From positions 1 to 64,000 of the IMG/VR virus record IMGVR_UViG_3300029438_000229: DNA of 64,000 nucleotides; one strand, 5' to 3'. The stretch comes from a virus. Shown here piece by piece: positions 1 through 62,643 of this stretch. Position numbers and translations under genes: made by a program. The notes under the pieces were generated by a model. It saw only the letters and a program-made list of their open reading frames with translations, did not search any database and was not told the DNA's origin. The first letter of the stretch is position 1. Each line of letters starts with the position of its first letter.

Positions 1-139
1 AAAAGGGCGGACCTCCTGTGATTAGGAAGTCCGCCCTTAAAGCGAAACTATGAATTGTTGTACGAAAGATATTTTTCTTTCCGTGTGAATGTTATCTATC
101 GTACATCTTTCATTCTATGCAACTCGCACAACTTGGCAA
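1..139 (-). promoter_or_regulatory. Promoter-leader-terminator cassette, copy A (transcribes leftwards out of the window)
   Basis: Minus strand: -35 TTGCCA (134-139), 16-nt spacer with GCGAG, -10 TAGAAT (112-117). Then TGTACGATAGATAAC, hairpin GAAAGA/TCTTTC (64-81), TCGTACAAC..TTTCGCTTTAAGG. Ends with hairpin GGGCGGACTTCC/GGAGGTCCGCCC (5-36) plus T-run (1-4). Confidence 0.7.
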
Positions 140-525: not shown

Positions 526-553
526 AATATACTCATTTCGCACGAATTGACAA
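526..553 (-). promoter_or_regulatory. GCGAA-spacer promoter (short leader)
   Basis: Minus strand TTGTCA-attcgtGCGAAatgag-TATATT with a 16-nt spacer. Confidence 0.6.
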
Positions 554-1386: not shown

Positions 1387-1463
1387 GTGTGACCTCCTTC
1401 GTTGTCTGCAAAACAAAAAGCAGACAGTTACAAGTTTACGCAACTCGCATAATGCGTCAACAA

Positions 1464-4928: not shown

Positions 4929-5062
4929 AAAAAAGCGGACCTCCCAACATCGGGAAGTCCGCCTTAAAGCGAAATTGTGAATTGTACGAGCGCAGTCAGC
5001 GCCTTAGTAGAATGGTATCTATCGTACAATCTCAATTATATCCGACTCGCACGAAGATGCAA
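4929..5062 (-). promoter_or_regulatory. Promoter-leader-terminator cassette, copy B
   Basis: -35 TTGCAT (5057-5062), 16-nt spacer with GCGAG, -10 TATAAT (5035-5040). Then ATTGTACGATAGATACC, hairpin GGCGC/GCGCU, TCGTACAATTCACAATTTCGCTTTAAGG. Ends with hairpin GCGGACTTCCC/GGGAGGTCCGC (4935-4962) plus T-run. Confidence 0.75.
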
Positions 5063-11092: not shown

Positions 11093-11389
11093 TCAAGCCG
11101 AAGCTTGCGGGTACTGGTCAAGAACATCGTTGAATCGGGAATCTAGGTGCCGGTCATTTTCGTCACGGGCGGGATAACTGAACGCGTTCTCGTCTGCAGC
11201 AGCATCCGTGAATCCGTCCATCATGGTCAGGATACCCTCCATCCAGGCAGCGGCTCTGCCAAACATACCGTTTTCCTGTTCCTTGTTGCGGTGTAGGTAA
11301 TCGGTAAGGCTTTCAAGAGCCATCTTCTGCTGATAGAAGGTATCCCAGTTAATGTCTTTGATAGTGTCGAGGTAAGCGTTATCGTCCAT
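11093..11389 (-). CDS. Hypothetical protein (98 aa)
   Basis: AAGGAG 10 nt upstream of the ATG at 11389. First gene after cassette C. Confidence 0.6.
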   Translation of the reverse strand: MDDNAYLDTIKDINWDTFYQQKMALESLTDYLHRNKEQENGMFGRAAAWMEGILTMMDGFTDAAADENAFSYPARDENDRHLDSRFNDVLDQYPQASA

Positions 11390-13141: not shown

Positions 13142-13169
13142 ATTTTATGCGATTCGCAAGTATTGGCAA
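13142..13169 (-). promoter_or_regulatory. GCGAA-spacer promoter
   Basis: TTGCCA-atacttGCGAAtcgca-TAAAAT with a 16-nt spacer. Confidence 0.6.
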
Positions 13170-17118: not shown

Positions 17119-17274
17119 TCACAATGTCTTAAACTTATGGCAGCAACGCATCATGGTGCGGATACGAACCAAGTCAATCTCGATTGCCAATGCGTTGATG
17201 GCTTCGAGCAGTGCATAGACAGCCATTGCGGGAATCGCTACAAGTAAAATAATGATGGATTTAATGGCTTTCAT
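17119..17274 (-). CDS. Small membrane protein (51 aa), below the ORF-track cutoff
   Basis: MKAIKSIIILLVAIPAMAVYALL.. with GGAGAAAGAGAG upstream. First ORF after cassette E. Confidence 0.4.
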   Translation of the reverse strand: MKAIKSIIILLVAIPAMAVYALLEAINALAIEIDLVRIRTMMRCCHKFKTL

Positions 17275-17312: not shown

Positions 17313-17432
17313 CAAAAAAAGACAGGTCACCCGGTTGGTGCCTGTCTGAATTTTGTCAGGTTGTAAATGGTTGGTCGTGGTTTGGTATCTATTGTACAAT
17401 ACTCATTCTATACTGTTCGCAAACGCCGTCAA
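17313..17432 (-). promoter_or_regulatory. Promoter-leader-terminator cassette, copy E (divergent leader)
   Basis: TTGACG (17427-17432), 16-nt spacer with GCGAA, TAGAAT (17405-17410). Then ATTGTACAATAGATACC. Ends with hairpin GACAGGCACC/GGTGACCTGTC (17321-17346) plus T-run. Confidence 0.65.
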
Positions 17433-21613: not shown

Positions 21614-21916
21614 TCAGAATTTGAAGTCCTGACACACTTCGATGCTGTTTTTGTCATAGCCGACAGCGTACAGTTCATTGAGCAGCGGCGTATACTCCTC
21701 GACCGTTGCAGGAACGCCTGTCTTCAGATACCCGTAAGACGCATTCACATGCTGCCCATTGTGGACATACGCATCGAAATACAGGTTTGGGTCCTTCAAT
21801 TTGAGTCTTTTGCAAAACTCGAGGGTTCCCGGTATCTTGTCAAGAAACACACAGGTGAGTTCGGAACCGGCTTCTGGATTGAGTTCGTCGGTACAGTTAA
21901 GAAAAGCTACTTTCAT
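21614..21916 (-). CDS. Hypothetical protein (100 aa)
   Basis: AAAAGGAGAA upstream of the ATG at 21916. First gene after cassette F. Confidence 0.6.
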   Translation of the reverse strand: MKVAFLNCTDELNPEAGSELTCVFLDKIPGTLEFCKRLKLKDPNLYFDAYVHNGQHVNASYGYLKTGVPATVEEYTPLLNELYAVGYDKNSIEVCQDFKF

Positions 21917-22115: not shown

Positions 22116-22148
22116 ATAAAAGCGGACCTCCCGCTTCGGAAAGTCCGC
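22116..22148 (-). terminator. Intrinsic terminator with the same stem sequence as the cassette terminators
   Basis: GCGGACTTTCC-gaag-CGGGAGGTCCGC followed by TTTTAT (minus strand), just after the stop of 22170-22811. Confidence 0.65.
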
Positions 22149-22169
22149 TATAGCCGCAATTATCTGATT

Positions 22170-22811
22170 TTACTGAGCCTGGTTATCGGTCGGCTGCTGC
22201 GGTGCAGCGGGCTGCTGAGGCTGAACCGGCGCGGCAGGCTGCTTGGGCTGTGCAGGAGCCTGATAGGTCATGTTGGGGTTCTGGGTCTGTTCCTGAGTCG
22301 GCTGCTGGTACTGAGGCTGAGCCTGAGCAGGATGCGCAGCCTTGTAGGTATCATACTTCTGCTTCATCTGGTCGTAAGAATAGCCATCCTGCGGGATACC
22401 GAAGTACCGGCACTGACCGAATGCCAGAATCATGTTGAAGATGGGGTTCAGGAAGAACAGGCCAATGGTGAAGCCAATCCCCTGCCCAAACGCGACACTC
22501 TGTTTGTACAGGGTTACGATGTTGATGATGACGCCAACGATGACCAGCAGCGTGCCGAGCAGCGGGATGCCGCCAAGTACAGTGCAGACGATGGGGACAA
22601 AGAACAGCCAGCCGTTGCCCCAGAAGATTTTGTACCGGATGTAGCTGTTGTAAAACGGGACGATGGACGCCCATCCGGGTTGACCGGCCTTTTCGAAGAT
22701 TTTCCAGCCAGCCACAATGTTGAGAACGAAGAATGCCAGGATGATGAGCCAAAATCCAGCAAAGATGCTGAGAAGTGCATTGAGGGCCGCCGCCTCTGAA
22801 CCGTAAGACAT
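22170..22811 (-). CDS. Membrane protein with Q/P-rich C-terminal tail (DUF5684-like)
   Basis: Motif GWKIFEKAGQPGWASIVPFYN, several TM helices and a PQQPAAP-type tail. AGGAGGAA upstream of the ATG. Confidence 0.65.
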   Translation of the reverse strand: MSYGSEAAALNALLSIFAGFWLIILAFFVLNIVAGWKIFEKAGQPGWASIVPFYNSYIRYKIFWGNGWLFFVPIVCTVLGGIPLLGTLLVIVGVIINIVTLYKQSVAFGQGIGFTIGLFFLNPIFNMILAFGQCRYFGIPQDGYSYDQMKQKYDTYKAAHPAQAQPQYQQPTQEQTQNPNMTYQAPAQPKQPAAPVQPQQPAAPQQPTDNQAQ

Positions 22812-23757: not shown

Positions 23758-23785
23758 AGTCTATGCGGTTCGCAAGAATGTGCAA
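23758..23785 (-). promoter_or_regulatory. GCGAA-spacer promoter
   Basis: TTGCAC-attcttGCGAAccgca-TAGACT with a 16-nt spacer. Confidence 0.6.
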
Positions 23786-24389: not shown

Positions 24390-24938
24390 TTAGTAAATAT
24401 AGTTCTCGCTTCGAAGCGCTGCCTGAACGGCGCGGATTTCCTTTTCGGTGAGTTGGTAGCTGCCAATCGGCGTGTTCGCGGAACCAAAGTAAGCGGAATC
24501 GAACACCATGCAGGCTTCTCCGTTCTCATTGAGCCGATAGAGGAATGCTTCCTTTGTCCGTGCATCAGTAGGATGGTCTACCAGCGATACGAGAGGAAGA
24601 CCTGTTGTCGAGTTCTTAACCATCTGCCACTCGGATGCGTTCCGGTCACAGTACCCAGCAATGTAGATGTGCGGCTCGGAGATAAGGCGCAGGTCACGCT
24701 TCATCAATTCGAGCAGTGAATTGGCGGGCTTGCAACTGTAAGTATTGGTCAATTCGGCGTTTAGCTCGAAATTGAGCGAAACACAGAAAACACGGTATCC
24801 GCGCTTATCCAAGTCATCGAGCATTGCGGTGCCAGCGCCCGAAGACAGGAACGAAACCATCTTGGTGTCCATGTTTTTAGGCAGGTAAAGCACAGCTGTA
24901 ATGAGGTATTTTTCCGAACGCACCAGATTCTTAAACAT
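24390..24938 (-). CDS. Hypothetical protein (182 aa)
   Basis: ATG at 24938 with GGAGG 10 nt upstream. It abuts the stop of the upstream gene. Confidence 0.6.
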   Translation of the reverse strand: MFKNLVRSEKYLITAVLYLPKNMDTKMVSFLSSGAGTAMLDDLDKRGYRVFCVSLNFELNAELTNTYSCKPANSLLELMKRDLRLISEPHIYIAGYCDRNASEWQMVKNSTTGLPLVSLVDHPTDARTKEAFLYRLNENGEACMVFDSAYFGSANTPIGSYQLTEKEIRAVQAALRSENYIY

Positions 24939-25195
24939 CACGCATCATCCTCCGTCTTGGTAGTCATGCCATGGACTTTGTCGATGGCGGCGGCAATCGT
25001 GTTGTTCTCCAGTTCAGTCATCTGTGTGCAAAGGTAACCCCAGTCGATGGCATCGTGGACCTTGCGGACAAACGCATCGTAGGTGCCAGCAGTTTTCATC
25101 ATTTCGATTTCCGATTCATAGCAGCCGGATTCCTCGAGCAGATGCTGGATGTCATCGATGGGGTTCATTTCGATAGTTGGTACAGTTTTGTTCAT
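24938..25195 (-). CDS. Hypothetical protein (85 aa)
   Basis: AAAGGAG upstream of the ATG. First gene after cassette G. Confidence 0.55.
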   Translation of the reverse strand: MNKTVPTIEMNPIDDIQHLLEESGCYESEIEMMKTAGTYDAFVRKVHDAIDWGYLCTQMTELENNTIAAAIDKVHGMTTKTEDDA

Positions 25196-27361: not shown

Positions 27362-27673
27362 TCAGTTCCCATCCACAAGACTCTCGTCGTGGTTGACAAC
27401 AGCATCTATCTCCGGAGTTGCGACCTTCAAAAGACCATAACCCGCAAAGAACGAATCAGGAATGTCATACACATCGCCCCAGTCAAAGCAACCGAAGTTG
27501 TCGTCAAGTGCCTTTTTGCCGTCTTCGGTTTTTAGGTAATCCCCGACGGCGCGGCGCACCTGTGTGAGAACATCAGATACCTGTTCATGGTCATACTTGA
27601 ATTGCAAAATGGTCGTTCCTGAGTTGTGCAGACCAAAATACTCTCTGACGGCGATAGTAAAAATCTTTTCCAT
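27362..27673 (-). CDS. Hypothetical protein (103 aa)
   Basis: AAAAGGAGCG upstream of the ATG at 27673. First gene after cassette H. Confidence 0.6.
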   Translation of the reverse strand: MEKIFTIAVREYFGLHNSGTTILQFKYDHEQVSDVLTQVRRAVGDYLKTEDGKKALDDNFGCFDWGDVYDIPDSFFAGYGLLKVATPEIDAVVNHDESLVDGN

Positions 27674-27703: not shown

Positions 27704-27841
27704 AAAAAAGGCGGGCTTCTCATCTGAGAAGTCCGCCCTTTAAGCGAAATTGTGAATTGTACGAAAGGCATAAAACCCTTTCGATATGGGATGTTATCTA
27801 TCGTACAATACCCATTCTATTCAGTTCGCACATTTTGGCAA
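27704..27841 (-). promoter_or_regulatory. Promoter-leader-terminator cassette, copy H
   Basis: TTGCCA (27836-27841), 16-nt spacer with GCGAA, TAGAAT (27814-27819). Then ATTGTACGATAGATAAC, hairpin GAAAGG/CCTTTC, TCGTACAATTCACAATTTCGCTTAAAGG. Ends with hairpin GGGCGGACTTCTC/GAGAAGCCCGCC (27710-27738) plus TTTTTTG. Confidence 0.75.
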
Positions 27842-28022: not shown

Positions 28023-29171
28023 TTATGGCTTGCAGTATCCACAAGGCGTATATCCCTGTTTGATAAGTTCCTCTCTTGTGCCGGTGTACTTCTCTCTATT
28101 TGCATCGCTTATCTGAGATGCAGAGGAGCAATCAGGGCGGTGGAACTTGCGAGAGTTCGTGTTCAGGATGTATGTCTCGGAAATTGTGTCAGGCTGCTGT
28201 GGTTCTTCCACCTCGGTGCCAGAGACATCAACATCCTTGTGGTATTCCCCATACGAGAAGGTGACTTCCGTACCGTCAGAGGTGCAGTAAATATCACCGA
28301 GTTCGTCCGTTCTGAACACCTCAACTCCCGCGCTGGCCAGCTTTGCGAGGGTTTCGCTGTGCGGGTGTCCGTAGCTGTTGTCCTTGCCGCAGGATATGAC
28401 CGCATAAGTAGGGCTCACAGCATCCAGAAATGCCTGAGAGGTGGAGGTACTGGACCCGTGATGCCCGACCTTTAAGACGGTGGATTCGATGTCTTGTTCG
28501 GATTCGAGTATCTTCTCTTCTGTTTCCTGTTCGGCATCACCGGTGAACAGGAAAGATGTATCTCCGTAGACAATGCGAATTACAATGGAAGTATTGTTCG
28601 TGTCCTCAGGCACGGAATTGACGGCCACAACGGTGACGGTGGCTTCCCCTAGGGTGAATGTATCCCCAACTGCCGGGACGGTAATGCCACCGCCTCTCTC
28701 GTCCGCACGAGCCTTAAAGTTCCGGAATGCCTTGCTGTCATATTCTGTCACAGGACAGAATGTGACATCGGCTGTGTCAGCCTCGAAAGCACCCGAAAGA
28801 CCTCCGATGTGGTCTTCGTGGGCGTGTGTTCCTACGACATAGTCTAAGTGTCCCTCTGTCTCGCGCTGTAATACTGAGTATACAAGGTTCGAGTCATCGG
28901 CATTGCCGCCGTCAATGAGCATCGAGTGCCCATCGCAGGTGACGAGGGCGGAATCTGCCTGCCCGACATCGATAAAGTGGATGGTAAAGCTGCCGCCTTC
29001 CGATACGCCAGCCGTCTCCTGACCGCTTTGTGCGGTAGTTTCTGAGACGACCCCGGATACAGGAAGGCTTCCCGGAGATTCCGGTGTCTGACCGCAGCCT
29101 GTGAATGTCAGTGTGAAGAACGCGGCAATTACCGCTGCAGTTCTCCGAAGAAATTCGTGTTTGGTTTGCAT
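28023..29171 (-). CDS. Secreted ComEC/Rec2-type metallo-beta-lactamase-fold hydrolase with C-terminal Ada-like Zn domain
   Basis: Lipobox signal (FTGCGQ). MBL motifs HFIDVGQADS, HAHEDHIGG and VGHHGS. C-terminal KFHRPDC....CGYC. Confidence 0.85.
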   Translation of the reverse strand: MQTKHEFLRRTAAVIAAFFTLTFTGCGQTPESPGSLPVSGVVSETTAQSGQETAGVSEGGSFTIHFIDVGQADSALVTCDGHSMLIDGGNADDSNLVYSVLQRETEGHLDYVVGTHAHEDHIGGLSGAFEADTADVTFCPVTEYDSKAFRNFKARADERGGGITVPAVGDTFTLGEATVTVVAVNSVPEDTNNTSIVIRIVYGDTSFLFTGDAEQETEEKILESEQDIESTVLKVGHHGSSTSTSQAFLDAVSPTYAVISCGKDNSYGHPHSETLAKLASAGVEVFRTDELGDIYCTSDGTEVTFSYGEYHKDVDVSGTEVEEPQQPDTISETYILNTNSRKFHRPDCSSASQISDANREKYTGTREELIKQGYTPCGYCKP

Positions 29172-29192: not shown

Positions 29193-29310
29193 AAAAAAAG
29201 CGGGCCCATCCCCCGAAAGGGATAAGTCCGCTAAAAACGAAATTGTGAATTGTAAGATATCTGGTATCTATCGTACAATTCTATTCTACCGGTATCGCAA
29301 GAACATGCAA
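29193..29310 (-). promoter_or_regulatory. Promoter-leader-terminator cassette, copy I (short leader)
   Basis: TTGCAT (29305-29310), 16-nt spacer with GCGAT, TAGAAT (29283-29288). Then ATTGTACGATAGATACC..TTACAATTCACAATTTCG. Ends with hairpin GCGGACTTATCCC/GGGATGGGCCCGC (29200-29231) plus T-run. Confidence 0.7.
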
Positions 29311-35270: not shown

Positions 35271-35310
35271 ACAAAAAGACCCTGACAGCTATCACAACAG
35301 CCATCAGGGT
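35271..35310 (-). terminator. Leader terminator between promoter 35334-35361 and the helicase gene
   Basis: ACCCTGATGGCTGT-tgtgat-AGCTGTCAGGGT followed by CTTTTTGTT (minus strand). Confidence 0.55.
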
Positions 35311-35333
35311 ACATTTTTTAGTCTATAATTTAG

Positions 35334-35361
35334 ATTGTATGCAGTTCGCACAAATGTGCAA
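35334..35361 (-). promoter_or_regulatory. GCGAA-spacer promoter
   Basis: TTGCAC-atttgtGCGAActgca-TACAAT with a 16-nt spacer. Confidence 0.65.
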
Positions 35362-38975: not shown

Positions 38976-39012
38976 AAAAAGAAAAGACCCGCCTGTTAGC
39001 CGCAGGCAGGTC
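38976..39012 (-). terminator. Intrinsic terminator
   Basis: GACCTGCCTG-cggctaa-CAGGCGGGTC followed by TTTTCTTTTT (minus strand). Confidence 0.65.
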
Positions 39013-39199
39013 TTTCTTCGCAGTGAGCGTTTAAGGTCGGCTCAGGACCCTATTCGTCTCTACCGAAGCAACGTCATCAACGCTGTTCAGTATGTTTTAT
39101 TGTATGCCAGTCGCACGGGTCGTCAACTATGTTTTGCAGCGACACAGCAAAAAAGGAGTCTCACCCGCTGATGCAGGCAAGACTCCTAATTGGCTCAGC

Positions 39200-39520: not shown

Positions 39521-39563
39521 AATATGTTCTCCTTTGTATTGATGTGTGCTTGCTACACTTTCA

Positions 39564-39591
39564 ATTCTAGGCCGTTCGCATAGCTGGTCAA
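39564..39591 (-). promoter_or_regulatory. GCGAA-spacer promoter
   Basis: TTGACC-agctatGCGAAcggcc-TAGAAT with a 16-nt spacer. Confidence 0.65.
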
Positions 39592-39607
39592 CTGCCCAAT
39601 CATCCTG

Positions 39608-39628
39608 AAATCCGACTAGGTCGGATTT
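39608..39628. repeat. Near-perfect 21-nt palindrome just upstream of the promoter
   Basis: AAATCCGAC-TAG-GTCGGATTT. Confidence 0.7.
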
Positions 39629-39650
39629 TCCGAAAATTTCTTTTGGAAAC

Positions 39651-39688
39651 AAAAAAATAGCCCGCACAGAACTGAATCTGTACGGGCT
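39651..39688 (-). terminator. Intrinsic terminator
   Basis: AGCCCGTACAG-attcagtt-CTGTGCGGGCT followed by ATTTTTTTG (minus strand). Confidence 0.65.
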
Positions 39689-39692
39689 GGTA

Positions 39693-40157
39693 TTAGTCAT
39701 GAGGATGTTCGTGGCAGGGTTCAGGCGGCATACCATGCGGGTCAGGCTCAGGGAAGCGGCCATGGTCCCCGATGATTTCCGAAGTACGGATACCGTTCGC
39801 TTTCCGACATGCCTCGATGGTCTTAGAAAGCACTTCCTTGACATCACGCGGATTCTTGATGCGGCGGATGTCGATTTCCGGTGTCATAGCATCCGTAGAG
39901 CAGAGATGGATGCTGCCGACACGGCAAAGGCGCTCATAAAAGTTCTGCTTGAACGCGATGTCCCGGACGCGGTACAGCTGAATCTCATCCTCGCGCAGGT
40001 TAAAGCAGCCACGCTGGATGATGAGTTTGGTCTCGGTCAGGGTGTACTTTGTAAATGACAGTGGCAGAGAAAAGATGGTGTGGCGTTTGCGGTCGGTCCA
40101 GAGAATCTTCTCCTTGTCCAAGTCGATGCCGAACTCGCCGTTTTTGAGGGTGGACAT
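39693..40157 (-). CDS. Bacterial PH-domain (bPH_2/YdbT-like) protein
   Basis: ..KYTLTETKLIIQRG.....EIQLYRVRDIAFKQNFYERLCRVGSIHL.. AAAGGAG upstream of the ATG. Confidence 0.6.
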   Translation of the reverse strand: MSTLKNGEFGIDLDKEKILWTDRKRHTIFSLPLSFTKYTLTETKLIIQRGCFNLREDEIQLYRVRDIAFKQNFYERLCRVGSIHLCSTDAMTPEIDIRRIKNPRDVKEVLSKTIEACRKANGIRTSEIIGDHGRFPEPDPHGMPPEPCHEHPHD

Positions 40158-40316
40158 GGTATGGCTCCTTTCGTTATGGGATTTGTTTGGGTTGTTGGTA
40201 TTTATTAGTTGGTACTGAGATGATTTGAATTATTAACATTATACCATTTGTTTTTGCAATTTTCAATTGTACAAGAGATGGCACAAGGAATTTTCGTTTG
40301 TTCTTATGTTTTTTAT

Positions 40317-41054
40317 TTACATGTTATCTTTATTATCAAAATAATCTGTCACCTTTTTCAAGCTCTCTATACTGGCTACGGTAGAATAAATTTTGTATCC
40401 ATAAGTTTTGTAATCTTGTGGAGCCGGATAGTCAAGCTGTATAAAATTTCCAACTCCTTCGAAAATTGCATAGCAAATAATAGGAATCCCAATTTCAATC
40501 AGCATGTGTTTGTTATCAATTATCTTTCCAGATGCGTTTGAAATCGTCAGTTTGAAATCGTATCCACTTGTTGTATTTTCATGCAAAATTTTATTTCTTA
40601 GATAGTAACATTTTTCCCCAGTAAATCCGTTGTCTGCGAGTGCTTTTCCATCCGGACCACCATTCTCTATTACATATTCATCAAACCATTTTTCATATCG
40701 ATTTCTTACCTCAGTTTTGCCAAAATGGGCATATGCGATTGCTCCACATGTATCGGGCAACGTAAGTGCCAGCTGTAATGCTGCCCCATAAAGACCGAAT
40801 TCCAAGCATAGATGTGCTTCCTTTGCTTTGGCGGCAATCGTATAATAAGTGTACCCATCCGGGCAGTCCAAGCCTGTAATACGCTCTTGACTTTTCAGTT
40901 CATTATAAAACGCATATTCGTTTGGTGCGAAGGGTCCATTTTTGTTTTCGCAGTACATTTCATGATTAACTCTTTGTAACTTTTCGTAGTATTCCGTACA
41001 TATCACGAAGATTCCATCTTTTGTCAATCCCATCCTTTTATCTTTCCCGTCCAT
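40317..41054 (-). CDS. HEPN/DUF4145-like protein (possible Abi-type effector)
   Basis: 245 aa in a visibly AT-rich stretch. Carries an Rx4H motif in the context YYLRNKILHEN. Confidence 0.45.
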   Translation of the reverse strand: MDGKDKRMGLTKDGIFVICTEYYEKLQRVNHEMYCENKNGPFAPNEYAFYNELKSQERITGLDCPDGYTYYTIAAKAKEAHLCLEFGLYGAALQLALTLPDTCGAIAYAHFGKTEVRNRYEKWFDEYVIENGGPDGKALADNGFTGEKCYYLRNKILHENTTSGYDFKLTISNASGKIIDNKHMLIEIGIPIICYAIFEGVGNFIQLDYPAPQDYKTYGYKIYSTVASIESLKKVTDYFDNKDNM

Positions 41055-41081
41055 CTTAGAACCCCCTATCTATATTAAACC

Positions 41082-41178
41082 AAAAACCTCCCACCGCAGT
41101 CAGCATGCTACTGATTACGATGGGAGGCTCAAACCTTTTGTGATAGTCTTATTATACCACGCTTCGTGAATTACTCAA
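41082..41178 (-). promoter_or_regulatory. Promoter plus leader terminator in front of the HEPN-like gene
   Basis: TTGAGT-aattcaCGAAGcgtgg-TATAAT (41151-41178, 16-nt spacer). Then hairpin CCTCCCA...TGGGAGG plus TTTTTGG (41082-41127), then the start codon. Confidence 0.5.
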
Positions 41179-41381
41179 GACCAATCTCAATAATTCAGTC
41201 AATATCCAAGTTGTCAAATTCTTTGTGAGGACGAAGATGCTCTGGACGGATGTATTGGGGTTGGTTCAGGACATCTGTCTCGGCGTTGAGTGCTGATAAG
41301 GACTGCTATAGTTTTTGGGGTGATGGTGGTTACGATGTCATGGTGAGCGCTTGTTACGGTTTTGTTCGTTACTGTGGCATA

Positions 41382-41501
41382 TCAATCGTCGTCATCATCA
41401 TTCTTATCATAGCCACTGCACTCTTCACGATGTTCGCAAAAATCGCAACAGCAATCATCTGTAAACTCACCGGTTTCCCAGCATAAGTCGGTAGGATACA
41501 T
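41382..41501 (-). CDS. Small Cys/Asp-rich protein (39 aa), below the ORF-track cutoff
   Basis: GAAAGGAGG upstream of the ATG. Sequence MYPTDLCWETGEFTDDCCCDFCEHREECSGYDKNDDDDD. Confidence 0.35.
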   Translation of the reverse strand: MYPTDLCWETGEFTDDCCCDFCEHREECSGYDKNDDDDD

Positions 41502-41756
41502 TACAAGACCTCCTTTCACATATCTCTAATTTTTCTCTTCTGATTTGCTCACAAGTTTTTTCGCGACAGATATTCTTCCAATTTTAGATAATCCATAGTT
41601 ATTATACACCATTTCTGTCCTTTTCAAAATGGTTTAGTATATTCTTAGCTTTCTCCTTCACCTTCCTCATATATTCTTCCATATACACCCAGTCAGGCTG
41701 ACCGGTCTTGTCTATGGGAAGCATAATTCTTGCAACATAAAAACAACATCGGTATG

Positions 41757-42893
41757 TCAATTATCCGACTTCACCGCATTGCACTTTTTGCACAGCATCT
41801 GCAGGTTGTTGTCGGTGGTATGCCCGCCCTTGCTCCAAGGAATGATGTGGTCGCCTTCCATATCCTTAAAGGCGTACTCGGTGTTGATGCCATTTGCAAC
41901 GCACAAGGGACACTTGTGACCTTGCCGCTCATAGGCGCGGAGTTTCTGCGACTCAGTGAATGCGCGAAGGGACAGGTGCTTCTCATCGCGCCAAGTACGG
42001 TCAGAGAGGATAAACGGGATGATGCCTGCCTTCTTGGTTACGTCATCATCCAGCACGAGTTTCTTGATGTCAGCTTCCAGAGCGTTGCTGTTGTACTGCT
42101 TTGCATGATACTTGTTGTAGAGCAGTCCCCATGCCTGTGCATCCGTAATTCCCTTCCGTTTCGTCGGGAACAACATCTTCGCCCAGTTGATGACAGACTG
42201 GAAGTAAAGCCAGAGGTCATTGGCATCCTCGTCATGCTGGTGAACCGCCATGTACATCTGCCCGGATTCCAGACCGTCACGGTCAGCAATCCATGCCAGT
42301 GCTTTTTCCAGCAACTCCTGCCGAATCGGGTTGCCTTTCAGGTATCCGTCCGCCATCTTCGCAGCAACGCAGTTGCGTTTCGAAAAGTAGTTTTTGGCAT
42401 CAGCCAGCCACGGTCCTGTGTATGTAGCGTTCAGAAGCTCCTGCGGAGTCAGAACTTCGCCAGCAATGTTAATGCGCTTGAACCATTCCAATTTCTCGGC
42501 TTCAGTGCCTTCGCAGACATAGACCGTCAGCTCATAGTCCAGAATTGCCTGCTTTTCCTCGTTGGTCAAGTTTTGGAAGAACTTGTCGTTGCCATTGATT
42601 TTGATAGGAAAATCCTTGTTAATGTACTGGGCAATAGAGACGGTACGCTGCTGCCCATCAAGAACCTCGTATGTGTCAGCCCCGGTCTTAGACCAGTACA
42701 TGACATTCAGCGGAAATCCGTTCATTACGGAATCGATGACGGCTGCACGCTGCTTCTCCCCGTAAATAAACTCACGCTGGAAGGATGGGCGAATCGTAAG
42801 ACGGTCATTGTAGCCAAAGACACCGCCATCGCCATTATCCTTGTAGTTTTCGACAAGGTCAGATACCTTGATTTTCGTTTCTGTGATTTTCAT
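41757..42893 (-). CDS. DUF262 (ParB-like) + HNH nuclease, GmrSD-like type IV restriction-type architecture
   Basis: N-terminal FQREFIYGEKQR...YEVLDGQQR. C-terminal HNH DHIIPWSKGGHTTDNNLQMLCKKCN. ATGA overlap with the upstream gene. Confidence 0.85.
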   Translation of the reverse strand: MKITETKIKVSDLVENYKDNGDGGVFGYNDRLTIRPSFQREFIYGEKQRAAVIDSVMNGFPLNVMYWSKTGADTYEVLDGQQRTVSIAQYINKDFPIKINGNDKFFQNLTNEEKQAILDYELTVYVCEGTEAEKLEWFKRINIAGEVLTPQELLNATYTGPWLADAKNYFSKRNCVAAKMADGYLKGNPIRQELLEKALAWIADRDGLESGQMYMAVHQHDEDANDLWLYFQSVINWAKMLFPTKRKGITDAQAWGLLYNKYHAKQYNSNALEADIKKLVLDDDVTKKAGIIPFILSDRTWRDEKHLSLRAFTESQKLRAYERQGHKCPLCVANGINTEYAFKDMEGDHIIPWSKGGHTTDNNLQMLCKKCNAVKSDN

Positions 42894-43648
42894 AGTTGTT
42901 TACGACCTTTCTTCTTTTGAGGCGTACACTCTTTTTTAATCTGCTTACGGAGCTTAGCCTCTTGTTGCTCTCGTAATTTCCGTAATGCATCTGACGGTGC
43001 AGCTGTATCCGGTTTTACATCGCCGCCATCCTGATACCACCCGGCAGAATCATGCATTATATCGACGATATATGTTTGACACTCCCCGCCGATACTTTGT
43101 TCTGCGTGATATTGGAATACATCGATGTTCTCAAGAAGGCACCCACGAGTTAATGAAATAGCGTTAGCGAGCGAAAGATTCTTATAGTCGATTCCGGAAT
43201 TCATTATGGCGTGTGCAACATCAGTAATACCGTTATATGAGGCTCCATAAGAGCCAATTTCTGTTGATAAAACAATAGATGATTTGGCAGTGTCGATAGT
43301 GTAAGTACAAGCCATTCTCCCAAATTCTAAATACCCACTAATCTTAAATATTGTGCAGCCGTTACCATTGACGCGGAAGTATTCATTCAATATTTTTAAC
43401 GGCAAATCATCAATGGTGGCTTGCTTCCCATATTTTTTACGTATATCATATAAGAATTGCATTACGGTCAGGTTTTCTCTTACTTTTGCATCGCCACAAT
43501 GGCTTACAACGATACGATTTGGAAAAGGTACTATTTTTTCGGCAGTGTCATCGTATTGAACATGCCCTTTACCATCCCTGCGAGTAGTGCGCGTATCAGC
43601 GCAGACAACAATGCCTTCAGGAACAATAGTATGTATAATCAGTGACAT
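42890..43648 (-). CDS. Proteasome-beta/HslV-like Ntn-hydrolase-fold protein
   Basis: MSLIIH-TIVPEGIVVCADTRTT..., EKIVPF.NRIVVSHCGDA, ..YGASYNG... and ..SIGGECQTYIVD follow the order of proteasome beta-subunit motifs. The start lies 1 nt after the methyltransferase stop. Confidence 0.55.
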   Translation of the reverse strand: MSLIIHTIVPEGIVVCADTRTTRRDGKGHVQYDDTAEKIVPFPNRIVVSHCGDAKVRENLTVMQFLYDIRKKYGKQATIDDLPLKILNEYFRVNGNGCTIFKISGYLEFGRMACTYTIDTAKSSIVLSTEIGSYGASYNGITDVAHAIMNSGIDYKNLSLANAISLTRGCLLENIDVFQYHAEQSIGGECQTYIVDIMHDSAGWYQDGGDVKPDTAAPSDALRKLREQQEAKLRKQIKKECTPQKKKGRKQL

Positions 43649-43649
43649 A

Positions 43650-44693
43650 TCACGCCTCGGCTTTCTTTTGAATGAAAATCCGCTGATAAACCGAATGTAA
43701 GTATTTTCCGTGCTTACTAACACTGTAATCGCATTTACCTTTACCCGGAATTTTTGGGGACATTTTATCTCTCAATGCGCCGGACCCAGAAGGCGAAACT
43801 CCGTCAGTCTTCAAAAATGTGTATTCGCCGTCAGGATAATACACTTCAATTCGGCAAGGCGTATCATCGAACATGGAACCACCAACAATCTCAAACTCAT
43901 CCGGGTTATACTTATCCAGAAATGTGATAGGTACGCCCATAACACCCTTGTAATCCACCGGGATATCCGCAACCCTGTCTACATTGATGGCATCGTAGTT
44001 ATCGTAGTGGGGGTAGCGCTCCTCCGCATCCGGCAAAGGATTCCCGTCATCGTCATAGTACCGCTGCCAGAGAATCAGCTTTTCGTGGCGCTTCTGGATA
44101 TCGAGGTTGGTATACCACAATTTATTCCCGAATTTTTTGATTGTCCCGTCAGGTTGTACGAATTCTTTTACAGAAGAATATCCAAGCCAGACTTCATTGT
44201 TCTTTAGCATCGGGAAAATTTCTTTGTAAGTAATCCAGTTGAGGTCTCCGATGATAACAAATTGCTTGCCATGCTCGCGTAAACACTGGACATAAGCCCT
44301 TGCAAGGGAAAAGGGCGGATTCGTTACCACAATATCGCTCTCATCCAGCAAGTCGAGACATTCCTTGTTTCGGAAATCGCCGTTACCTTCCAGCGGGGTC
44401 TTAACTCCGACTTCCACATTGTTGTCGTCCCCACCCTCGTATTCCATCTTGTAGGTGGGCTCGGTGCGGTCGTAGTGTGTGGAAATCAGCTTCTTTAAGC
44501 CGAGCTCAGCGAAGTTCAGGTGGAAATACCGCCAGAAAGCAGACCAAGTGGGGTCGTCACAGTTACAGAATACAACCTTGCCCGCAAAATGCTTTTTGTA
44601 GTGCCGCAGTTCCTCCGCGACATCCTCGATTCTGGTATAGAACTCGTCGTTCTTAGCGTCTTTCGCTTTATGCAAATTATCGTTCTTTGCCAT
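43650..44693 (-). CDS. N6-adenine DNA methyltransferase (EcoRI-methylase-like family)
   Basis: N-terminal KNDEFYT and catalytic VVTNPPF. GGAGGA upstream of the ATG at 44693. Confidence 0.85.
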   Translation of the reverse strand: MAKNDNLHKAKDAKNDEFYTRIEDVAEELRHYKKHFAGKVVFCNCDDPTWSAFWRYFHLNFAELGLKKLISTHYDRTEPTYKMEYEGGDDNNVEVGVKTPLEGNGDFRNKECLDLLDESDIVVTNPPFSLARAYVQCLREHGKQFVIIGDLNWITYKEIFPMLKNNEVWLGYSSVKEFVQPDGTIKKFGNKLWYTNLDIQKRHEKLILWQRYYDDDGNPLPDAEERYPHYDNYDAINVDRVADIPVDYKGVMGVPITFLDKYNPDEFEIVGGSMFDDTPCRIEVYYPDGEYTFLKTDGVSPSGSGALRDKMSPKIPGKGKCDYSVSKHGKYLHSVYQRIFIQKKAEA

Positions 44694-44706
44694 CTCCGTA
44701 TCCTCC

Positions 44707-44740
44707 AAAAACAAAACCCCCGATGCCGTAACATCGGAGG
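44707..44740 (-). terminator. Intrinsic terminator directly upstream of the methyltransferase SD
   Basis: CCTCCGATG-ttacgg-CATCGGGGG followed by TTTTGTTTTT (minus strand). Confidence 0.65.
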
Positions 44741-44752
44741 CGTAAAAATCAA

Positions 44753-46066
44753 TTATTTATCGTTAAGAATCGCCAGCAACTCATCGAGGCTGGTCACATA
44801 CTGGTATTTTCTCGCCATCTCACCAGGCACTGGAATCAACTCGCTCATGTAATAAAGAACCTGCACTCCGTTGCTGGTGCATTCGTTATACTTGTCGGTA
44901 TCCCGCTGCTTTCGTGCCTCGAAATCCCCGTCATCGCTGCCGTAGGGGTAAAAGTGCTGCACACCCTGACACTCGATGGCGATGTTCTTGCCTGGCAGGA
45001 AGAAATCCAGACGCTTCTTCCCCATCCACGGAAACATCTTTTCCCGCTGATACTCGATACCGTTGCATTTGAGCATCATGAGCACATCGTTTTCGAGGTA
45101 GGACTTCTCGCGCAGGAAATCTTCCGTATTTCGGTAGATTACCGGCTTGGCAGTCTGACTGATAGCTTTGTTGGGGTTCAGTTTCTTGTAATGCACGGTC
45201 GTCGGTCGGACATAGACGACCTTGCCGCTTTGCAGATGCCGGAAATGTCCGCAACGCTCAGATTGGAGCACGCAGAACCCGGCAAACGCCCGTTTCCCAG
45301 CACCGTCATTCACATAGACGACGATGCCCTTTTTGAGGTCCACGATAGTCTGCTTGGAGGTATTCAGGCATTCTCTGACATCCTTGACCGTTTCCTGCTC
45401 CCCGTTCGCGTGTACGATGCGCTGCTCGACCTTCCGACTCAAACGCCGCCGTTTCCAAAGGCATATCGTGTGCAGCCAGATTTGCAGTATCAGCGCCGCT
45501 GAGCTTGGAGCCGTCACGGTGTTCCGTTCATGTAGGGAATCGCGCTCGGTTCGCAGCCACCGTTCCAGCATGTTGCCAGACTCGTTCAGAACGGAAAGGT
45601 AGCCGTATACCCCATTCCGGGTGTTCACTGCCATCATCAGCCCGTCCACGCCGAATTCCTTCTCTGCCCTTTTCAGCTCGACAAATACCGCCATTTCCCG
45701 CATCCGCCAGTTGTCGGTAGGCATGACCATAGCACAGGTATTCTCGCCCTCAAAGCCTACGAGAATCGGGCATAGGAAAGTTGTGTCAGCCCTTCTGTGG
45801 ACAATGATATATAATGACGCACCGTAGGTATCATCTACCTTGATAGCGTACTCATCGTAGGGCTCAAGCCCATACTCGCCGCGATTCAATCGAAAGTCAC
45901 CGATGACCGATTCGTTGTCGGTCGTGAGTTTCGCAATGGTAGGCAGCTGCAGGATACGAGTAAGACCCTTGACGACCTTATAGCATTCTGCGCTCTTCCC
46001 TTGCATTTGGTACTTGTCATGCGTCAAGTAGAATTCGCGTTGCCATTCGGCGCTATTATTATTCAT
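44753..46066 (-). CDS. Protein with C-terminal DUF559/Vsr-like PD-(D/E)xK endonuclease domain
   Basis: C-terminal ..KKRLDFFLPGKNIAIECQGVQHFYP....RKQRDTDKYNEC..NGVQVLYY. The N-terminal ~330 aa are unrecognised. Confidence 0.6.
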   Translation of the reverse strand: MNNNSAEWQREFYLTHDKYQMQGKSAECYKVVKGLTRILQLPTIAKLTTDNESVIGDFRLNRGEYGLEPYDEYAIKVDDTYGASLYIIVHRRADTTFLCPILVGFEGENTCAMVMPTDNWRMREMAVFVELKRAEKEFGVDGLMMAVNTRNGVYGYLSVLNESGNMLERWLRTERDSLHERNTVTAPSSAALILQIWLHTICLWKRRRLSRKVEQRIVHANGEQETVKDVRECLNTSKQTIVDLKKGIVVYVNDGAGKRAFAGFCVLQSERCGHFRHLQSGKVVYVRPTTVHYKKLNPNKAISQTAKPVIYRNTEDFLREKSYLENDVLMMLKCNGIEYQREKMFPWMGKKRLDFFLPGKNIAIECQGVQHFYPYGSDDGDFEARKQRDTDKYNECTSNGVQVLYYMSELIPVPGEMARKYQYVTSLDELLAILNDK

Positions 46067-46089
46067 GTAAAATCCTCGCTCCCGGCTAC

Positions 46090-47202: not shown

Positions 47203-47235
47203 GATGACTCCAATAAAAAATCCGGCACGAATCAC

Positions 47236-48213: not shown

Positions 48214-48255
48214 TTTGGCCCTATAAAAAATGAGCGATAAATGCGCGGAATGCAC

Positions 48256-48295
48256 AAAAAACACACGCGCTCATTTATCGAATGCACGCGTGTGT
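48256..48295 (-). terminator. Intrinsic terminator between two methyltransferase genes
   Basis: ACACACGCG-17-nt loop-CGCGTGTGT followed by TTTTTTG (minus strand). Confidence 0.6.
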
Positions 48296-48343
48296 TTAAG
48301 ATGCTTTTTGTTGGTCTTTGTGCGAAAACAAATAGCGGTATCT

Positions 48344-49686: not shown

Positions 49687-49699
49687 GATTTCCTCCGCA

Positions 49700-49741
49700 A
49701 AACAAAAAAGCCCCGCGCAGACATTTCATCCACGCGGGGCT
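49700..49741 (-). terminator. Intrinsic terminator
   Basis: GCCCCGCG-tggatgaaatgtct-GCGCGGGGC followed by TTTTTTG (minus strand). Confidence 0.65.
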
Positions 49742-49759
49742 AGAACAAACTATGAGTTT

Positions 49760-49896: not shown

Positions 49897-49986
49897 AGAA
49901 AAATCAAGCCGCAGAGAACAAATCCCTGCGGCTTATACTAAATCACTTTATATTCTCCATTGTATCCAATTCGCACGAATGTGCAA
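49897..49986 (-). promoter_or_regulatory. GCGAA-spacer promoter plus leader terminator
   Basis: TTGCAC-attcgtGCGAAttgga-TACAAT (49959-49986). Then hairpin AAGCCGCAG..CTGCGGCTT plus GATTTTTC (49897-49934). Confidence 0.6.
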
Positions 49987-54728: not shown

Positions 54729-54756
54729 ATAGTACGCAATTCGCACGAATGGGCAA
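54729..54756 (-). promoter_or_regulatory. GCGAA-spacer promoter
   Basis: TTGCCC-attcgtGCGAAttgcg-TACTAT with a 16-nt spacer. Confidence 0.6.
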
Positions 54757-57314: not shown

Positions 57315-57342
57315 ATTGTATGCAATTCGCACGGCTGTGCAA
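57315..57342 (-). promoter_or_regulatory. GCGAA-spacer promoter with a ~340-nt leader
   Basis: TTGCAC-agccgtGCGAAttgca-TACAAT with a 16-nt spacer. Confidence 0.65.
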
Positions 57343-62615: not shown

Positions 62616-62643
62616 ATTATCTTCAATTCGCACAAATCGGCAA
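62616..62643 (-). promoter_or_regulatory. GCGAA-spacer promoter
   Basis: TTGCCG-atttgtGCGAAttgaa-GATAAT with a 16-nt spacer. Confidence 0.6.

Follow-up and report, generated by a model that had tools for sequence, protein, structure and literature searches.

A recurrent promoter, leader RNA and terminator unit as a candidate antitermination-gated attenuator in gut Clostridia phages

Ten intergenic regions in a stretch of viral DNA of 64,000 nucleotides (IMG/VR record IMGVR_UViG_3300029438_000229, positions 1 to 64,000; hereafter the window) carry copies of a five-part unit composed of a sigma-A-type promoter with TGCGA in its spacer, a leader, a helix that encloses one or two hairpins, a single-stranded block and a terminator. 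We tentatively read this unit, at a confidence somewhat short of an even chance, as a portable antitermination-gated attenuator cassette of a clade of large, uncultivated phages that infect gut Clostridia. Judged by sequence comparison, the leader is an undescribed RNA family: against Rfam 15, no family reached its gathering threshold over the whole window, and one unit run in E-value mode gave a best E of about 0.9 at 18-19 bits, as compared to gathering thresholds of 44-50.

Organisation of the repeated unit

The ten regions had been singled out by the original prediction, and all of them were found on the minus strand and could be aligned over their whole length. They are given below with the scores of a covariance model built from 41 copies (window and relatives) and run with filters off.

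1..139, minus strand: canonical unit, 81.3 bits; its downstream gene lies outside the window
4929..5062, minus strand: canonical unit before gene 4399-4899, 100.9 bits
11462..11589, minus strand: canonical unit with divergent interior, before gene 11093-11389, 60.6 bits
15938..16083, minus strand: canonical unit, divergent, with CGTACCAAAGATACCA as block A, 45.3 bits
17313..17432, minus strand: canonical unit almost without interior hairpins, before gene 17119-17274, 35.8 bits
21940..22072, minus strand: canonical unit before gene 21614-21916, 104.5 bits
25227..25364, minus strand: canonical unit before gene 24938-25195, 86.9 bits
27704..27841, minus strand: focal unit of promoter, leader RNA and intrinsic terminator, read directly in the sequence, before gene 27362-27673, 92.9 bits, E 1.3e-14
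29193..29310, minus strand: canonical unit in minimal form (helix P1 and one hairpin), before MBL lipoprotein gene 28023-29171, 63 bits
53266..53396, minus strand: canonical unit before repeat protein gene 52483-53235, 70.1 bits

The covariance model recovered exactly these ten units in the window (35.8-104.5 bits, E 1e-16 to 2.5e-4), the next match, at E 0.012, being an antisense shadow, and the same model detected 212 copies across 822 kb of sequence from related gut viral contigs and a single MAG of the Clostridiales. The order of parts is the one that had been claimed: -35, a 16-nt spacer, -10, ATTGTACGATAGATAMC, a variable hairpin, TCGTACAATTCACAAT..., a GC hairpin with its U-run, then SD and start codon. 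The full string TCGTACAATTCACAATTTCGCTTTAAGG that had been given as conserved is shared by only some 6 of the ten copies, whereas TT[CT]A[CT]AAT is the general constant. The parts of the focal unit are placed as follows.

27814..27841, minus strand: promoter with -35 TTGCCA (27836-27841), TGCGAA (27825-27830), -10 TAGAAT (27814-27819) and a spacer of 16 nt; 10/12 consensus matches; logo over 132 copies
27792..27809, minus strand: block A, ATTGTACGATAGATAACA, at the 5' end of the predicted transcript and 7 nt from the -10; it holds the 5' strand of helix P1 and the -10-like hexamer TACGAT
27763..27782, minus strand: variable hairpin P3, GAAAGG / CCTTTC (folds and covariation)
27756..27764, minus strand: 3' strand of P1, TCGTACAAT, which includes TACAAT (folds and covariation test)
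27749..27756, minus strand: block B, TTCACAAT, conserved and single-stranded, with the -10-like hexamer CACAAT (alignment of copies)
27704..27738, minus strand: intrinsic terminator GGGCGGACTTCTC-AGAT-GAGAAGCCCGCC followed by T6, -19.3 kcal/mol, with covariation

Terminator stems are uniformly very strong (mean 14.2 +/- 1.8 bp, -21.6 kcal/mol, U5-7), and compensatory changes were found in 9 of 11 stem pairs. Those of B. subtilis typically measure 9 +/- 2 bp (PMC10325885). The same conserved stem, GCGGACTTTCC / GGAGGTCCGC, also forms a stand-alone terminator at the end of gene 22170-22811 (22118..22149, minus strand), and the order terminator, promoter, leader, terminator repeats along the entire window. 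In 126 of 155 units an SD and an open frame lie at most 80 nt behind the terminator, with a median of 28 nt after the U-run. Since the SD and start codon follow the U-run at about 28 nt, leaving no space for another promoter, the cassette genes can be expressed only by read-through. The genes downstream of the units are unrelated to one another. The prediction that the units are promoter-proximal leaders closed by strong intrinsic terminators is supported, and the more general proposal, that termination would be overridden by a dedicated mechanism, stands.

The promoter motif TTG-N8-TGCGA-N6-TANANT occurs 21 times in the 64-kb window as compared to 0.48 expected, always on the minus strand. 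TGCGA, which the search pattern itself demanded, is thus in all 21 of these phage-type promoters, 11 of which lack the canonical leader. In 93 related loci there are 198 distinct phage-type promoters; 133 of them have the canonical leader and 131 of these 133 have a terminator within 130 nt, it being noted that these loci were chosen for containing units. A perfect palindrome, ATTCG-TG-CGAAT, is found in 13/65 promoters without the canonical leader versus 0/133 with it in the related loci, and this palindromic spacer resembles the operator of a dimeric regulator. Three further units with the same promoter and an unrelated leader hairpin and U-run had been proposed. Two of them are indeed of this kind, whereas the third (41082-41178) has an ordinary promoter without TGCGA; a fourth region, at 38976..39126, comes in addition to these three. 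The promoters outside the ten units are listed here.

526..553, minus strand: phage-type promoter without leader, SD and ORF directly after (promoter motif)
1433..1460, minus strand: phage-type promoter from which leader and cassette are deleted, with a scar that links +8 of one leader and the 3' arm of a terminator from another unit (seen against L080 and L052)
13142..13169, minus strand: phage-type promoter without leader (promoter motif)
23758..23785, minus strand: phage-type promoter without leader (promoter motif)
35273..35361, minus strand: phage-type promoter with an unrelated leader hairpin and U-run, before a UvrD-like helicase gene
38976..39126, minus strand: phage-type promoter (39099-39126), then a structured non-coding RNA candidate of ~123 nt ending in terminator 38976-39016
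39564..39591, minus strand: phage-type promoter without leader (promoter motif)
41082..41178, minus strand: ordinary extended -10 promoter, TGGTATAAT, with leader hairpin and U-run, not phage-type (sequence and terminator fold)
49899..49986, minus strand: phage-type promoter with palindromic spacer ATTCGTGCGAAT and an unrelated hairpin and U-run (promoter motif, terminator fold and palindrome count)
54729..54756, minus strand: phage-type promoter without leader, its spacer a perfect palindrome, ATTCG-TG-CGAAT (promoter motif)
57315..57342, minus strand: phage-type promoter followed by ~340 nt without convincing ORF, upstream of a PLD-nuclease gene (promoter motif)
62616..62643, minus strand: phage-type promoter without leader (promoter motif)

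Some other readings of these sequences were considered and rejected. TGCGAAC could not serve as an ECF-type -35 with CGAT as -10, the 20-nt spacing being unsuitable, and TACAAT as part of an antisense promoter, read from the strand opposite P1, was attributed to chance (21 consensus matches versus 19.3 expected). That AATTGT...GATAACA resembles lacO1, and that the arms of P1 recall a split operator of the LacI type, was judged coincidental because the half-sites lie 17-45 bp apart.

Structure and conservation of the leader RNA

The leader is folded, measures about 60 nt and starts at its 5' end with the near-invariant TGTACGATAGATAMCA. Two of its segments, ATTGTACGA and TCGTACAAT, are reverse complements and pair as helix P1, which closes the variable region, so that the 5' domain consists of P1 around P2 and the covarying P3. 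The three helices were tested by means of named structures and single-sequence folds; RNAalifold on the raw MAFFT alignment found the terminator only, because the variable region misaligns. Within the canonical subfamily, pairing holds in 93.9% of cells, and changes on both sides are seen in 3 of 4 P3 pairs and in one P1 pair. P3 exists in at least 8 unrelated yet always complementary stem sequences. P1 and P2 are near-invariant in this subfamily and therefore receive little support from covariation. Folding gives a mean z-score of -2.1, and in 145/155 copies the 5' block takes part in pairing, sometimes in a shifted register; in divergent copies the same 5' block pairs with another downstream segment. 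The leader is thus constrained as RNA.

Its architecture is loose. In the folds, unit 29193-29310 has only P1 and one hairpin and unit 17313-17432 is nearly unstructured, while P3 or P2 is absent from some copies and the register of P1 shifts. Block B is located 31-57 nt from the start of the unit and is separated from the terminator by a linker of 3-19 nt. The distance from the -10 to block A, as measured on ungapped logos, is constant in more than 90% of 147 copies, which suggests that promoter proximity matters for the leader. Each conserved block contains one -10-like hexamer in which NANNAT is maintained while positions 3 and 4 vary, and the first hexamer of the 5' block keeps NANNAT in 7 of 10 sequence variants (TACGAT, TACAAT, TATAAT, TATGAT, CATGAT, AACGAT and TAGCAT). 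The early-transcribed hexamer that had been pointed out, TACGAT, is indeed present at a fixed position, about +6 to +11, and would fit a sigma-dependent promoter-proximal pause.

No alternative antiterminator pairing appeared in the folds, where the minimum-energy fold holds leader and terminator together. A search of the window for a trans antisense partner of TTCACAATT matched the units alone, and pairing of the unit with the ~123-nt RNA candidate (38976-39098) was no better than with shuffles (z +0.8 to +1.3).

Possible routes past the terminator

In our preferred reading, host RNA polymerase would by default halt at the terminator, releasing an RNA of about 100 nt and leaving the cassette silent. 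A freshly initiated polymerase with sigma still bound would pause at the -10-like hexamers of block A (about +6 to +11) and/or block B, which would place the pause about 20 nt behind P1. During this pause the nascent leader would fold at the RNA exit channel and the polymerase would become terminator-resistant and proceed into the cassette genes. The leader may act alone, in the manner of put, EAR and canT, or together with a phage or host protein reading blocks A and B, in the manner of conAn1/conAn2 and N-nut. The entire module would move with accessory gene cassettes and act as a recombination joint. Since the leader offers no alternative antiterminator helix and its spacing to the terminator is variable, control would be exerted on the polymerase and not through hairpin competition. 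The loose architecture would be unusual for an RNA that docks by its shape, and recognition of linear motifs is therefore favoured. Against this reading it should be said that processive antitermination would also override operon-end terminators, to no obvious purpose, and that the four promoters with unrelated leader terminators would need another solution or a leader-blind factor. Stems of about 15 bp resisted conAn, the sole processive antitermination system tested for stem length.

In phage HK022 the put RNA needs no phage protein: it acts in cis and binds the zinc-binding domain of polymerase beta'. putL is an RNA of about 70 nt with two stems, located just downstream of PL and followed by terminators, and its embedded NANNAT is thought to cause a sigma-dependent pause, which lies 21 nt behind stem II (PMC9378689). 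Like putL and putR, our units place a short structured RNA (~50-70 nt, two stem-loops) directly after an early promoter, with terminators downstream that precede the early genes, more than one copy per genome and an embedded NANNAT, a pause about 20 nt behind the structure being documented for putL and predicted here (PMC9378689). The likeness is one of layout only, with no sequence or covariance-model similarity; the closing helix of our units encloses the hairpins, their architecture is variable and the terminator follows 3-19 nt on. There are 2 put sites per genome, in an E. coli host, as compared to at least 10 units per 64 kb in a Clostridia-type Firmicute host.

Among Gram-positive mobile elements, cis-acting RNA antiterminators are represented by conAn2, canT and EAR (PMC11658703). 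In conAn1/conAn2 (pLS20), canT (Tn916) and EAR (B. subtilis eps), the hosts are likewise Firmicutes and a leader RNA in cis lets polymerase pass intrinsic terminators (PMC11658703), the insulating role of terminators being a further likeness. They differ from our units in being single-copy and mostly long (canT activity requires 341-452 nt), in heading one long operon and in lacking any sequence relation. The lambda N/nut system, too, has several sites per genome at which a leader RNA element near the early promoters precedes terminators; our units, however, have no general boxA (CGCTCTTA-like) and no conserved boxB-like loop, about half of the copies carrying a vaguely boxA-like CGCTTTAA, and no small arginine-rich N-like protein was found.

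A more specific proposal, which we regard as unlikely, sees in the leader a novel RNA that would by itself carry Firmicute polymerase past terminators, as put does outside the Gram-positives. Bundled with a promoter and a terminator of its own, it would form a portable 'licensed promoter'. Only polymerases initiated at the promoter of the cassette (sigma retained, NANNAT pause, leader docked) would then pass the terminator, and those coming from upstream would stop. If this were true, every accessory cassette would bring along the means of its own expression and insulation, and phages could shuffle it freely among themselves.

The original prediction had mapped the unit onto lambda PR'-qut-tR', and this mapping is partly supported, as an option among several but not the one that fits best: a leader ending in an intrinsic terminator and a -10-like hexamer are present, whereas the spacer element is not a Q-site specific to leader promoters and Q does not need a leader RNA structure. 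With PR'-qut-tR' (and also Q21 and Q82) the unit shares a constitutive-looking promoter, an early-transcribed -10-like hexamer and genes dependent on read-through; the terminated lambda transcript, 6S RNA, is 194 nt long versus the ~100 nt predicted here, and Q serves a single late operon as opposed to many small ones. In such a Q-like scheme, a phage protein would bind the spacer TGCGAA and load onto a sigma-paused polymerase at TACGAT, the arrangement being multiplied over many operons. The conserved spacer element, a NANNAT hexamer (-10-like in 7/10 variants) at a fixed distance from the -10 (about +6 to +11) and a terminator ~100 nt downstream all agree with it; so does the invariance of the 5' block when its RNA partner changes, pointing to a constraint beyond base pairing, possibly at the DNA level, and a promoter-reading factor would cope with the four unrelated leader terminators. 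We nevertheless consider this unlikely, as TGCGA recurs in each of the 21 phage-type promoters, including the 11 that lack the canonical leader, the perfect palindrome is confined to promoters without that leader (13/65 versus 0/133), and one of the unrelated leader terminators sits behind the ordinary promoter without TGCGA. The conserved RNA structure of the leader would be unneeded by Q, and neither the closing helix nor the second conserved block would have a role. In Pfam and PHROG scans of ~70 window proteins, which represent only a portion of a genome of at least 100 kb, there was no hit to a Q-family (Antiterm, Phage_antitermQ, Phage_antiter_Q), sigma or NusG-like protein, and phmmer with RpoD, RpoE and NusG found none at E <= 1 in 8,751 ORFs from 178 related loci (1.59 Mb, biased to unit-rich regions).

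The unit could also do without any override. As a constitutive attenuator or insulator, it would be a strong promoter throttled by a terminator of fixed efficiency, keeping possibly toxic accessory genes low, an account to which we give a low probability. With a terminator upstream of the promoter, in the four-part layout that recurs window-wide, the module would insulate neighbouring cassettes; the leader would be retained for stabilisation of the 5' end, since P1, which begins at or near the predicted 5' end, sequesters the terminus, and as a ~130-bp repeat driving cassette shuffling. The joints of gained and lost cassettes do fall on promoters or units, a deletion within a unit has left one of the window promoters as its scar, and PeSL motifs are a precedent for repeated promoter/stem-loop motifs bounding indels (PMC4122927). 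The terminators are, however, uniformly very strong (14.2 +/- 1.8 bp, U5-7) and not graded as tuning predicts, two conserved blocks and a covarying hairpin exceed what 5' stabilisation needs, and recombination leaves the compensatory substitutions unexplained. If instead the ~100-nt terminated RNAs were themselves the product, as a family of trans-acting sRNAs that use TTCACAAT(YY) as seed or that titrate, sponge- or decoy-like, an RNA-binding or defence protein of the host, the genes would live on leak-through. This would suit the sRNA-like layout (5' structured domain, conserved unpaired stretch, strong terminator with U-tail), the many copies behind strong promoters and terminators that would make the short RNA the dominant product; it is improbable in our view, given that no complementary target was found in the 64-kb window, that the downstream genes are mutually unrelated and that 126/155 units have an SD-bearing gene within ~28 nt without a promoter of its own, so that the unit must at least also act in cis.

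A reading at the DNA level takes the invariant GTACGATAGATAMCA at +4 to +18 as a phage repressor site that would silence ten promoters, with incidental RNA hairpins, on the model of the stoperators of mycobacteriophage L5 and of the conserved inverted repeats behind phiC31 early promoters. Block A keeps its fixed position over the start site and stays invariant when its RNA partner changes, the promoters already hold an operator-like element and an Xre-type HTH protein is divergently encoded at 50287-52164, but block A is not palindromic, and the covarying P3, block B and the obligatory terminator are left unexplained. As a full account this is very unlikely, albeit compatible with the antitermination-gated attenuator, with which it can coexist. 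Least probable of all is a ligand-sensing riboswitch in which a three-way junction would bind a metabolite and toggle between terminator and antiterminator. Riboswitches commonly place a terminator behind a three-way junction, yet here mutually exclusive antiterminator pairing is absent, spacing to the terminator is variable and no Rfam match was obtained, and the junction itself is not conserved (P3 or P2 missing, P1 register shifts), which disfavours this idea.

Cassette exchange and biological meaning

Breakpoints of cassette gains and losses between related phages lie at units or promoters. Merely MITE-like insertion had been raised as a possibility, and the units do not appear to be MITE-like: relatives differ by whole gene cassettes that share a promoter, one junction has TGT microhomology, and the ends of the unit are the promoter and the U-run. 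In T4-type phages, the PeSL (promoter-early stem-loop) is a repeated early promoter with a terminator-like stem-loop that flanks variable ORFs, and indels between close relatives break at the motif (PMC4122927). The analogy with our units, a repeated promoter/stem-loop composite beside variable accessory ORFs with indels bounded by the motif, is functional and not one of homology; PeSL is a short terminator/promoter composite of phages with Gram-negative hosts, and the abstract describing it mentions neither a transcribed, structured leader nor a terminator between a promoter and its own gene (PMC4122927).

Neither the unit nor a 6-kb stretch matched GenBank phages or PLSDB plasmids (megablast and blastn), and tblastn of the helicase against phages gave no match. 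The GTDB matches were a 224-kb contig belonging to one Clostridiales MAG and a further, small contig, and exact-protein matches were to metagenome contigs only.

As a textbook paradigm, antitermination in phages rests almost entirely on the lambdoid phages of E. coli. To our knowledge no dedicated antitermination system has been described for Firmicute phages, and a literature search for one found none. An element of about 100 nt that exists in hundreds of copies, the natural variation of which maps its constrained parts, would offer a tractable entry point. The unit may serve as an annotation marker for the starts of transcription units in these phage genomes and as a small portable promoter/leader/terminator module for synthetic biology in Clostridia. 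As a regulatory RNA tied to cassette shuffling, it would extend the PeSL idea beyond T4-type phages, and it would explain how a widespread clade of uncultivated gut phages of 100-390 kb times the expression of its accessory and probably anti-defence genes.

Layout of the ten units

The ten regions first proposed to share one layout do align with each other over their full length on the minus strand. The promoter of the representative unit at 27704-27841 (-) consists of TTGCCA, a 16-nt spacer and TAGAAT; GTACGATAGATAACA begins 7 nt past the -10 and is followed by a hairpin, by TCGTACAATTCACAATTTCG and by a terminator, GGGCGGACTTCTC-AGAT-GAGAAGCCCGCC with six T residues, 30 nt past which come the AGGAG and ATG of gene 27362-27673. 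The pattern TTG-N8-TGCGA-N6-TANANT matched 21 times in the window against 0.48 expected, always on the minus strand, and although TGCGA was a required part of the pattern searched, this 21-fold excess is real all the same. In an independent consensus scan the unit promoters ranked top, with 10-11 of 12 matches. A covariance model, R1, trained on 41 copies and run on the window with filters off, recovered exactly the ten units (35.8-104.5 bits, E ≤ 2.5e-4), the next match (E 0.012) being the antisense shadow of the first one; no Rfam family matches the unit.

Four details of the original prediction were revised. The long form of the conserved 3' string is limited to about six copies, and what is kept in general is TT[CT]A[CT]AAT (block B); 41082-41178, listed as a further phage-type promoter unit, has an ordinary promoter, TGGTATAAT. 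The conserved terminator stem is also found without the rest of the unit at 22118-22149, and promoter 39099-39126, absent from that list, has a promoter-proximal terminator behind it. Two non-coding stretches adjoin phage-type promoters:

38976-39098 (-): about 123 nt behind promoter 39099-39126, predicted fold very stable (-51.4 kcal/mol), terminator at its end; a candidate phage small RNA that reaches the threshold of no Rfam family and is not especially complementary to the leader units
56974-57314 (-): about 340 nt between promoter 57315-57342 and PLD-nuclease gene 54808-56973, lacking a convincing ORF and unmatched in Rfam even with the cut-off relaxed to E ≤ 1

The leader terminator is real, since its stem shows compensatory changes at 9 of 11 pairs. 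Over 155 distinct units it averages 14.2 bp and -21.6 kcal/mol, whereas a typical B. subtilis terminator has a shorter stem, of 9 ± 2 bp (PMC10325885). A Shine-Dalgarno sequence and an open frame lie within 80 nt past the U-run in 126 of these units, at a median of 28 nt, which leaves no space for a second promoter; from this arrangement, the downstream genes are predicted to depend on read-through. The genes behind the ten units are mutually unrelated. Three products encoded in the window deserve mention:

28023-29171 (-): MBL-fold protein whose signal peptide (…FTLTFTGCGQ) is of the lipoprotein type, with a faint Anti-Pycsar_Apyc1 match in precomputed annotation; 13 metagenome contigs, in some cases 0.2-1 Mb long, encode an identical protein
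52483-53235 (-), behind a canonical unit: basic 250-aa protein in which a stretch of about 50 aa (W-T-x-E-E-L-x-I-L-x-x-R-Y-P-x-E-G-A-S…) is repeated four or five times in tandem, without Pfam match but matching PHROG 323, 'transcriptional regulator, D5-like'
3244-3549 (-): 101-aa protein without family match, its 11 cysteines arranged in CxxC pairs; named in the original prediction as a candidate factor

Fold and constraint of the leader RNA

A helix, P1, in which ATTGTACGA pairs with its reverse complement TCGTACAAT, encloses a variable region. Inside P1 lie a small hairpin, P2, formed by the conserved GATAGATA (TAGAT-ACC-ATCTA or register variants), and usually a second one, P3, for which at least eight unrelated stems were found, always complementary (GCGC/GCGT, GAAAGG/CCTTTC, AGCACA/TGTGCT, GGCA/TGCC, TCCGAA/TTCGGA, AGGC/GCCT, GCC/GGC and CATTACCT/AGGTAGTG). 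When 34 sequences of the canonical subfamily were aligned, 93.9% of cells paired, no slid register came near this value, and both sides changed at three of four P3 pairs and at one P1 pair; the P1 core and P2 are almost invariant and thus carry little information for or against pairing. Leaders deprived of their terminator are more stable than shuffles (mean z of -2.1), and 145 of 155 copies have the 5' block in a paired state. P3 stem diversity, both-side changes and folding z are evidence that the leader is constrained at the RNA level.

In related metagenomic viral loci of the L005/L035 type, GTATAATAGAT has its pairing partner, ATCTGTTATAC, 3' of TTYACAAT, and in L075 the partner of ATGTGAA is the TTCACAT block itself. 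Divergent copies therefore keep the 5' block with other partners, which argues that the closing helix is general and that the 5' block is constrained beyond pairing. Unit 29193-29310 is minimal, with P1 and one hairpin, and unit 17313-17432 is almost without structure. In minimum-energy folds of the units we detected no alternative pairing competing with the terminator, leader and terminator being present together in every one. In one relative, at L059:5350-5392 (+), a perfect 17-bp inverted repeat (AAGTGAACTACTCGGCAATTCAATTGCCGAGTAGTTCAC) stands in place of the promoter of a canonical unit, resulting in a promoterless leader.

The distance from the -10 to the 5' conserved block (block A) is constant, ungapped logos exceeding 90% across 147 copies; for block B the spacing varies, with 31-57 nt separating it from the start of the unit and 3-19 nt from the terminator stem downstream. 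In the first hexamer of block A (TACGAT, TACAAT, TATAAT, TATGAT, CATGAT, AACGAT, TAGCAT) positions 3 and 4 drift and positions 1, 2, 5 and 6 are kept, giving NANNAT, with TGCGAT, TACCAA and TAACAG as exceptions. The block B hexamer reads CACAAT, TACAAT, CATAAT, TATAAT, CACAGT or CATATT.

Relatives and cassette gain and loss

The window is an accessory region of a large phage, probably expressed early. Nearly all genes are on the minus strand, in a repeating order of genes, terminator, promoter, optional leader-terminator and genes. Most small proteins gave no family match in Pfam and PHROG, with which about 70 proteins were scanned; the recognizable products, with two further features, are:

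DNA processing: NAD-dependent DNA ligase, UvrD-like helicase, several DNA methyltransferases, HNH endonucleases
Also: GmrSD_N-domain protein, PLD nuclease
Others: MBL-fold lipoprotein, sortase, radical-SAM protein, two esterases
Plus strand: Xre-type HTH protein
41757-49686 (-): dense run of genes for DNA methyltransferases (C5 and others), with HNH or homing-endonuclease genes in between; the entire 10.7-kb block 39533-50248 is missing from relative L040
59038-59107 (-): self-cleaving, HDV-like ribozyme (RF02682, F. prausnitzii type; 57.2 bits, gathering score 44), the sole Rfam match in the whole window, adjoining the 3' side of VWA-domain gene 59134-60834

Nothing similar to the window sequence was found among GenBank phages and PLSDB plasmids. 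An exact leader 14-mer matched 117 IMG/VR loci, the majority being real relatives carried by gut viral contigs of 35-390 kb, and R1 detected 212 copies in 95 sources totalling 822 kb. The only real matches in GTDB genomes were a 'Clostridiales bacterium' MAG, one 224-kb contig of which carries at least 12 copies, and one small Clostridiales contig.

When related loci were compared with the window by megablast, cassette gains and losses broke at or beside promoters or units, which argues against a simple MITE-like insertion of the unit alone. The 'leaderless' promoter 1433-1460 (-) is a deletion scar (1415-1460), in which a TGT microhomology links leader position +8 with the terminator 3' arm of the next unit; the same site carries a full leader and an extra 1.3-3.3-kb cassette in L080:2350-5760 and L052:2040-3480. 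Truncated units also occur (L058:4204, L211). PeSL promoter/stem-loop composites of T4-type phages likewise mark cassette breakpoints (PMC4122927).

Proposed override of the terminator

The units fit an attenuator whose strong terminator would have to be overridden. Given the variable leader-to-terminator spacing and the lack of a competing helix, such an override would need to work on the polymerase. The scheme that fits best, and which we favour tentatively, is a cis-acting leader RNA aided by promoter-proximal sigma-dependent pausing; the RNA would act alone, as do put, EAR and canT, or with a protein reading blocks A and B, as in conAn and N-nut. HK022 putL has an embedded NANNAT, thought to cause a sigma-dependent pause that aids folding, and in addition a pause 21 nt behind stem II (PMC9378689). 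By the geometry of the units, a polymerase in sigma-dependent pause about 12 nt past CACAAT would stand about 20 nt behind P1, at the terminator foot. Several points count against this scheme: the Pfam and PHROG scans revealed no antitermination factor; phmmer with RpoD, RpoE and NusG found nothing over 1.59 Mb of related loci; the loose leader architecture suggests linear-motif recognition and hence a protein partner; and conAn is resisted by long stems of the kind seen here (PMC10325885).

DNA-loaded antitermination resembling that by Q, as the original prediction had it, draws on the invariance and fixed position of the 5' block and on the existence of four unrelated leader terminators, but the RNA-level constraint on the leader speaks against it, as does the spacer element, which is not tied to leader/terminator promoters; we regard it as unlikely. 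The idea that this element is a Q-binding site linked to the terminator is not supported, TGCGA being common to promoters with and without leader and the perfect palindrome ATTCG-TG-CGAAT occurring in 13 of 65 promoters without canonical leader versus 0 of 133 with one. It looks like an operator or half-operator of a dimeric regulator. Two such palindromic promoters lie in the window:

49959-49986 (-): faces the divergent Xre-type HTH gene 50287-52164 (+)
54729-54756 (-)

The former arrangement hints at a repressor with its operator, and perhaps at a lysis-lysogeny switch. Among the other readings of the unit, a constitutive attenuator or insulator cassette is similarly unlikely, a trans-acting sRNA is improbable, and an operator at +4 to +18, compatible with the favoured leader-RNA scheme, is more doubtful still; a riboswitch seems very improbable.

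Our literature search found no comparable system for phages of Gram-positive bacteria. HK022 put shares the layout and the embedded NANNAT with the units, and lambda PR'-qut-tR', to which they had been likened, shares the short terminated transcript predicted for them. RNA-based antitermination is represented in Firmicute mobile elements by conAn, canT and EAR (PMC11658703), and PeSL is a similarly repeated, recombinogenic regulatory cassette (PMC4122927). Judged by sequence, the unit belongs to none of these. The units form an undescribed and very abundant family of leader RNAs with terminators, multiplied as a portable cassette.
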